Source: Polyangiales bacterium
GTDB lineage: Bacteria > Myxococcota_A > Polyangia > Polyangiales > Ga0077539
Assembly (NCBI GenBank): GCA_046351535.1
Contig: JAXLYG010000005.1
Location: forward strand, 165,334-229,333
Direction: 5' to 3'
Length of the DNA stretch: 64,000 nucleotides
Shown here piece after piece: positions 56,273 through 56,577 of this stretch. Made by a program: the position numbers and the translations under genes. The first letter of the stretch is position 1. Each line of letters begins with the position of its first letter. The notes beneath the pieces are model-generated. The model was not told the DNA's origin, did no database searches, and saw only the letters and a list, made by a program, of their open reading frames with translations.

Positions 56273-56577
56273 GTCCCGTCGTTCAGTGGTCTAGCTCTAC
56301 TGTCCCGATGGAGCCTGGGCCTTCACGCCGCGTGTTGAAACACGCGGCAGGGAAGGCACACGGTGAGCATCCTGCGAAAAGTCCCGCTTCGCAGGACTCC
56401 CAATCGGAGCCTCGTGCGCGAGTCCCGCGGAGCGGGACTTCGTTCAGATCGATCTCGAACTGCCTTCCCTGCCGCGTGTTTCAACACGGCGTGGGGGCGC
56501 AGCGCTCGTCCGGGACAGTAGAGCTAGGACGGCCGATTGTCGATCGGTCAACGCGGGTTCGATTCCCGTCGGGACCG
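56273..56577 (+). pseudogene. tRNA-Asp(GTC) third copy, disrupted in the D-loop by a 229-bp MITE
   Basis: 5' part GGTCCCGTCGTTCAGTGGTCTAG and 3' part GACGGCCGATTGTCGATCGGTCAACGCGGGTTCGATTCCCGTCGGGACC match intact copy 55442-55514 exactly, separated by insertion 56296-56524 flanked by CTAG duplication. Confidence 0.65.
56296..56524. mobile_element. Non-autonomous MITE (229 bp): 13-bp perfect terminal inverted repeats CTCTACTGTCCCG / CGGGACAGTAGAG, 4-bp CTAG target-site duplication, long internal inverted repeats
   Basis: Comparison of interrupted versus intact tRNA-Asp copies defines exact insertion boundaries; internal IR 56329-56360 vs 56462-56491; no ORF. Confidence 0.7.

Follow-up and report, generated by a model that had tools for sequence, protein, structure and literature searches.

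A MITE-like palindromic insertion at a CTAG site within a tRNA-Asp(GUC) gene of a tRNA array

Among the closest described counterparts of the insert reported in this study is MITEPsy1 of Pseudomonas syringae, a non-coding element of 100 bp with terminal inverted repeats (TIRs) and GGAAGG ends, which is present in many copies, has ISPsy2 as its parent, is mobilised in trans and duplicates CTAG (or YTAA) as a 4-bp target (PMC3189936). The insert resembles it in the CTAG on either side, which is compatible with a 4-bp duplication, in the TIRs and in the absence of coding sequence, but it begins with CTCTAC, is known from one copy and has no known parent. The MITEs of the IS630/Tc1-mariner superfamily, such as RUP of Streptococcus pneumoniae and Correia of Neisseria, are likewise small and non-coding, carry TIRs and fold into hairpins. 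However, the insert has no sequence similarity to RUP or Correia and, at 229 bp and fully self-complementary, is longer than either. It lies at a TA in the CTAG context that IS630 prefers, according to the statement in PMC2170065 that cites Tenzen & Ohtsubo 1991 for IS630 targeting TA within CTAG and duplicating TA only. A TA duplication and a 4-bp duplication are nevertheless indistinguishable here, and no IS630-like parent was found in the searches made. The intervening sequences of bacterial 23S rRNA and the non-canonical introns of archaeal tRNAs offer a third comparison, as they too form hairpins within a structural RNA gene. They are conserved across strains, and RNase III or the splicing endonuclease removes them from the RNA, whereas the insert is strain-specific, bears the marks of transposition and has neither a bulge-helix-bulge motif nor a ribozyme core.

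The window, by which we mean the whole 64-kb stretch of DNA analysed, is a chromosomal segment with 72% GC from a Polyangiales (Myxococcota) bacterium. The insert interrupts one gene of a tRNA array that has an SDF symporter gene on one side and a DegT aminotransferase gene on the other, and in which ARAGORN identified 16 genes and Rfam two more. The features of the locus are as follows.

54655-57116 (+): tRNA gene array (Lys ... Thr) that holds the insertion (ARAGORN, Rfam; same locus in relatives L020-L024)
55441-55515 (+): intact paralogous tRNA-Asp(GUC) (ARAGORN), 100% identical to the interrupted gene minus the insert
55913-55986: third tRNA-Asp(GUC) of the array
56272-56294 (+): 5' fragment of the interrupted tRNA-Asp(GUC), GGTCCCGTCGTTCAGTGGTCTAG, 23 nt, with the acceptor 5' strand, the D-stem 5' strand and the D-loop, ending in the left CTAG
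56291-56294 (no strand): left copy of the CTAG target (direct read; a single CTAG in the empty sites)
56295-56523 (no strand): 229-bp insert, an imperfect palindrome over its whole length, non-coding (direct read, fold, protein and Pfam searches)
56295-56307 (+): left TIR, CTCTACTGTCCCG (repeat search)
56331-56399 (no strand): left internal palindrome arm, with a hairpin GCCGCGTGTT-GA-AACACGCGGC at 56327-56348 (repeat search)
56420-56488 (no strand): right internal palindrome arm (repeat search)
56511-56523 (-): right TIR, reading CGGGACAGTAGAG on the + strand (repeat search)
56524-56527 (no strand): right copy of the CTAG target (direct read; empty-site comparison)
56528-56579 (+): 3' fragment of the interrupted tRNA-Asp(GUC), 52 nt, with the rest of the D-stem, the anticodon arm, the T arm and the acceptor 3' strand

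Read directly from the sequence, the insert (GC = 65%) starts with CTCTACTGTCCCG and ends with CGGGACAGTAGAG, and the two TIRs agree at 13 of 13 bp. The complementarity of the ends reaches 24 nt at 88%; counted together with the palindromic CTAG, the perfect part is 17 nt long. The internal arms are 78% complementary to each other, the insert, when aligned with its reverse complement, agrees at 76% over the full length, and the predicted fold is a single long imperfect hairpin from end to end, with z = -15.0 for the DNA fold of the insert alone and -206 kcal/mol (z = -14.4) for the RNA fold of the insert together with the tRNA. This is in agreement with an earlier note on this DNA, which had described a 229-bp insert with perfect 13-bp TIRs, a CTAG on both sides and an internal palindrome. 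The coordinates given there also hold in substance, with minor shifts: the intact tRNA-Asp had been placed at 55442-55514, compared with 55441-55515 by ARAGORN. The insertion point (C20a-U20b-A21-G22, our numbering) falls where the D-loop meets the 3' strand of the D-stem, and Rfam reports a partial tRNA match over the 3' fragment (56512-56577, 28.4 bits).

When the insert and one CTAG are taken out, the gene is 100% identical to its paralog at 55441-55515 and also to its ortholog in L024; neither tRNA half carries any substitution or other sign of decay. The relatives' loci were obtained by way of their proteins: the symporter has relatives of 97% identity, and the contigs that encode these yielded five syntenic loci (L020-L024) from Polyangiales assemblies, each with this tRNA array in the same place. 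Relatives include the assemblies GCA_964268295.1, GCA_052035985.1, GCA_054403255.1 and GCA_054403415.1. In all five, the base corresponding to window position 56294 abuts that corresponding to 56524 with a 4-nt CTAG overlap, and the tRNA-Asp is whole with a single CTAG. Four of these loci (L020, L021, L022 and L023) are 94-98% identical to the window, and the fifth, L024, which comes from an activated-sludge metagenome, shows 98.8% identity over about 13 kb, in which the insert is the sole large indel. The before/after pair that the paralog had been said to provide is thus stronger than claimed, as orthologous empty sites in five relatives stand beside it. Since these are true orthologous empty sites, chance is excluded as the origin of the observed structure. 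The alignments show that the insertion is real, recent and strain-specific, and on their evidence it is younger than the split of strains that are about 99% identical.

The array itself also differs among these strains. The window and L024 carry two tandem copies (in the window at 55244-55603 and 56075-56665) of a block of tRNA genes that consists of Glu-CUC, a Gly-like gene, Asp-GUC and a further tRNA-like gene; L020-L023 lack this duplication. Its presence in only some close strains shows that the array is structurally polymorphic among them, and the fact that L024 has the block duplication without the insert gives the order of events, with the duplication preceding the insertion. Several tRNA-like genes of tRNA size were missed by ARAGORN (55346-55420, 55796-55868, 56177-56250, 56670-56742, 55530-55603 and 56590-56665), two of which score 40-44 bits with Rfam. 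One type among them shows an unusual D-arm, and one copy of it carries C instead of U33. Such genes may represent tRNAs that are non-canonical or in decay.

An open reading frame (ORF 56221-56679) runs through the entire insert. Open frames of this kind are frequent in GC-rich DNA, and this one is far too short for a transposase. The six-frame peptides of the insert, concatenated and aimed at spurious ORFs called over other copies or at remnants of a transposase, were searched against 5.8 billion protein clusters without a match (E up to 1), and Pfam had no match on the insert either. The statement that the insert has no ORF therefore fails literally, although its substance, that the insert is non-coding, is upheld by the lack of protein and Pfam similarity. 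No promoter-like or terminator-like sites were found inside the insert, and a terminator or promoter cassette was rejected for this reason. A local inverted duplication was also rejected, as the insert has no similarity to the flanking DNA.

By its anatomy the insert fits a MITE-like element known from one copy. Its 229 bp are below the limit of about 500 bp, it has no transposase gene, its TIRs match 13/13, and the target duplication was checked against the empty sites of L020-L024 and the paralog. Several dispersed copies are part of the usual definition of a MITE. The earlier proposal of a new MITE family is consequently retained as regards the anatomy but not as regards the family, for which the searches made gave no second copy and no parent. 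The insertion is in itself an ordinary event, the disruption of a gene by a small transposon, which is of a familiar kind, although the evidence for it is unusually good here. Should other copies exist in the source genome, the filled and empty alleles from near-identical strains would provide base-exact boundaries for an undescribed myxobacterial MITE.

We suggest, with a probability of about 0.78, that the insert is a non-autonomous, MITE-like DNA transposon of the TIR type, which very recently entered a CTAG target in one tRNA-Asp(GUC) gene of an accessory tRNA array with the help of a DDE transposase from elsewhere in the genome. Such a transposase would act in trans and would presumably recognise CTAG, and the flanking repeat would result from a staggered cut in the target and repair of the gaps. 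The landing site may reflect a near purge of CTAG from this 72% GC genome, in which the tetranucleotide would survive mainly in conserved tRNA D-loops. In the 64-kb window CTAG occurs 9 times, compared with 167 expected from base composition (a depletion of about 18-fold) and 45 expected from a second-order Markov model. The insertion itself added one of the nine, and of the eight sites that existed before it three fall in tRNA D-loops of the 2.5-kb array. Of about 515 TA dinucleotides, no more than 8 (about 1.6%) have a CTAG context, so that under an "any TA" rule a landing there by chance has p of about 0.016. As CTAG is this rare among TA sites, the landing is unlikely unless CTAG is recognised, and the scarcity of CTAG targets accounts for the location in a tRNA D-loop without requiring that tRNA genes be targeted. 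In a CTAG-purged genome, conserved tRNA D-loops would be among the few targets left for CTAG-specific transposons, and redundant tRNA arrays can for this reason absorb such insertions. TTAG, TTAA, TATA and similar tetranucleotides also have 0-1 occurrences each in the window.

Further copies and a parent were sought in several collections. The window holds no second copy, nor does the roughly 110 kb of sequence from the relatives, and the 13-bp ends do not recur in the 64-kb window even with two mismatches allowed. BLASTN of the insert against phage and plasmid collections gave nothing, or only chance matches of 35-40 nt. GTDB (one genome per species), the JGI metagenomes and IMG/VR were scanned for paired ends with the pattern CTACTGTCCCG-N188-218-CGGGACAGTAG, which matched 3, 16 and 0 loci, respectively. 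None of these is the element of the window, and since the window's own locus is missing from the results, the source genome lies outside the DNA collections scanned. The matches belong mostly to an unrelated AT-rich MITE family, and three are long palindromes or chance. In IMG/VR, a single-end scan gave two chance matches, neither with a partner repeat, and a scan with an internal 20-mer gave no match. No transposase domain was found by Pfam among the window ORFs scanned. A parent insertion sequence was likewise not found in the window, the relatives, the phage and plasmid collections, the protein-cluster search or the end-pair scans, which cover 188-218 bp between the ends and would miss a full-length parent. 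Literature searches on the end sequence, on MITEs in tRNA D-loops and on myxobacterial MITEs found nothing relevant; the single paper that mentions both myxobacteria and the MITE term has Acidobacteria as its subject. One of the matched loci, L016 3100-3410 from the soil metagenome Ga0137411, is a GC-rich palindrome, near-perfect over more than 300 bp, that extends well past the matched motif; it may represent a foldback element of larger size or an artefact of assembly.

The AT-rich family is a low-GC MITE family with CACTACTGTCCCGTTAAC ends, a length of 210-239 bp and clean 9-bp target duplications, found in Thiotrichaceae and Thioalkalispiraceae MAGs and in the metagenome Ga0316209. At least 10 near-identical copies are present in Ga0316209 (L004-L010, L014, L017 and L018), and further loci are L001, L002, L012, L013 and L019. 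The family is apparently active in low-GC gammaproteobacterial (Thiotrichales-like) contigs, and its CA tip and 9-bp duplication presumably point to a parent of the IS4 family. It has a length similar to that of the insert, and 12 of the 13 terminal bases agree between the two, equally far from the tip; however, 11 of the 12 bases in common are imposed by the scan pattern. It differs in its AT-rich interior and in its 9-bp duplication, compared with 4, 2 or 0 bp for the insert, and the similarity between the interiors does not rise above that of shuffled controls. The likeness of the ends is probably a coincidence, and on account of the imposed bases, the other duplication length and the shuffled-level interior we rejected this family as a relative of the insert.

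Which transposase moved the insert is a separate question, and one insertion at a palindromic target does not reveal the transposase family. CTAG reads alike on both strands, so that three readings of the junctions agree with the sequence: a duplication of 4 bp (CTAG) and ends of 13 bp, a duplication of 2 bp (TA) and ends of 14 bp, or a blunt insertion that duplicates nothing and has ends of 15 bp. The tips of the insert are CTCTAC under the 4-bp model or GCTCTA under the 2-bp model, and not GG or GA, with which the ends of IS5-family elements characteristically begin (ISfinder tables). Elements of the IS701 family have been reported to duplicate YTAR, and the IS630/Tc1-mariner superfamily typically gives rise to MITEs that are small, self-complementary throughout and located at TA targets. 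For the latter reason, we lean slightly towards an IS630/Tc1-mariner-like enzyme with TA duplicated, rather than an IS5- or IS701-like enzyme with four bases duplicated. The earlier note had concluded from the CTAG duplication that an IS5-like transposase probably mobilises the element, which does not follow, as the palindromic CTAG also fits a TA duplication and the tips are not GG or GA. That the insert is an IS5-family MITE, moved by an IS5-like transposase with a 4-bp staggered cut at CTAG (YTAR), is possible but in our view doubtful. The junctions are compatible with a 4-bp CTAG duplication, such as is produced by IS5 (CTAG repeats, PMC10379815) and by the ISPsy2-derived MITEPsy1 (CTAG/YTAA, PMC3189936), and a landing at CTAG would be improbable for an enzyme that accepts any TA. 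Yet under that duplication the ends begin with CTCTAC, compared with GGAAGG in MITEPsy1 and GAGGGT in ISPsy19 as examples of IS5-family ends (PMC3189936), the searches made found no IS5-like parent, and a 2-bp TA duplication is equally compatible with the sequence.

It might also be proposed that no transposon is involved and that the insert arose through an error of sequencing or assembly, or that foreign palindromic DNA was captured once while a break was being repaired. This would agree with the single copy and with the lack of any relative in the databases searched, but we consider it improbable. Artefactual palindromes are usually perfect and copy the adjacent sequence, whereas the insert is 76% self-complementary and has no match nearby, and capture by end joining would not be expected to set perfect 13-bp TIRs directly against an exact duplication of a palindromic tetranucleotide that serves as a transposase target. 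In the predicted RNA fold, the D-arm is replaced by a duplex of more than 100 bp, which stands on a perfect 17-bp helix at the base of the insert, while formation of the acceptor, anticodon and T arms is preserved. With such an extruded duplex, the insert could conceivably be a processed intervening sequence, either an intron or a hairpin excised by RNase III, in a gene that still yields a working, possibly two-piece tRNA-Asp, which we regard as highly unlikely. The Correia MITE hairpins of Neisseria, when transcribed, are substrates of RNase III and provide a precedent, and the helix at the base of the insert is of a type that this enzyme cuts and may cut here. The long duplex would thus plausibly be a substrate of RNase III in the array transcript, and cleavage at the insert could cut the polycistronic transcript at that point. 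That RNase III removes the hairpin from it, with or without re-ligation, and so leaves a usable and possibly two-piece tRNA-Asp, is a very slight prospect; if true, a MITE would here have taken the role of an intervening sequence in a bacterial tRNA. Against this, a search of Rfam (E up to 1) returned neither a group I nor a group II intron, its matches being confined to the tRNA halves and to a microRNA below threshold that we treat as chance; both junctions lie inside the unbroken 17-bp helix of the predicted fold, which leaves no bulge-helix-bulge motif; and the insert is missing from every relative, including the 98.8%-identical one, so that it is not conserved. An intron in particular was rejected on these three grounds. 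Furthermore, the TIRs and the target duplication are marks of DNA transposition, the normal geometry of the D-loop is lost, and two further tRNA-Asp(GUC) genes in the array remove the need for selection on function. Under the preferred reading of a recent transposon insertion, the interrupted tRNA-Asp gene is most likely inactive, and its loss is tolerated because the same array contains an identical copy and the third tRNA-Asp(GUC).

Beyond the array, the genes of the window encode multihaem cytochromes, the SDF symporter, ClpB, a sigma-54 activator and others (Pfam). A 988-aa protein encoded at 30405-33371 (+) matches major-vault-protein shoulder and vault repeat domains, and a von Willebrand A-domain protein is encoded directly after it (33372-34682, +). 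Vault-like proteins are unusual in bacteria. The window also encodes a TROVE-domain (Ro60-like) protein at 2729-4444 (+); in bacteria, genes for tRNA-like Y RNAs usually lie close to those for Ro proteins.
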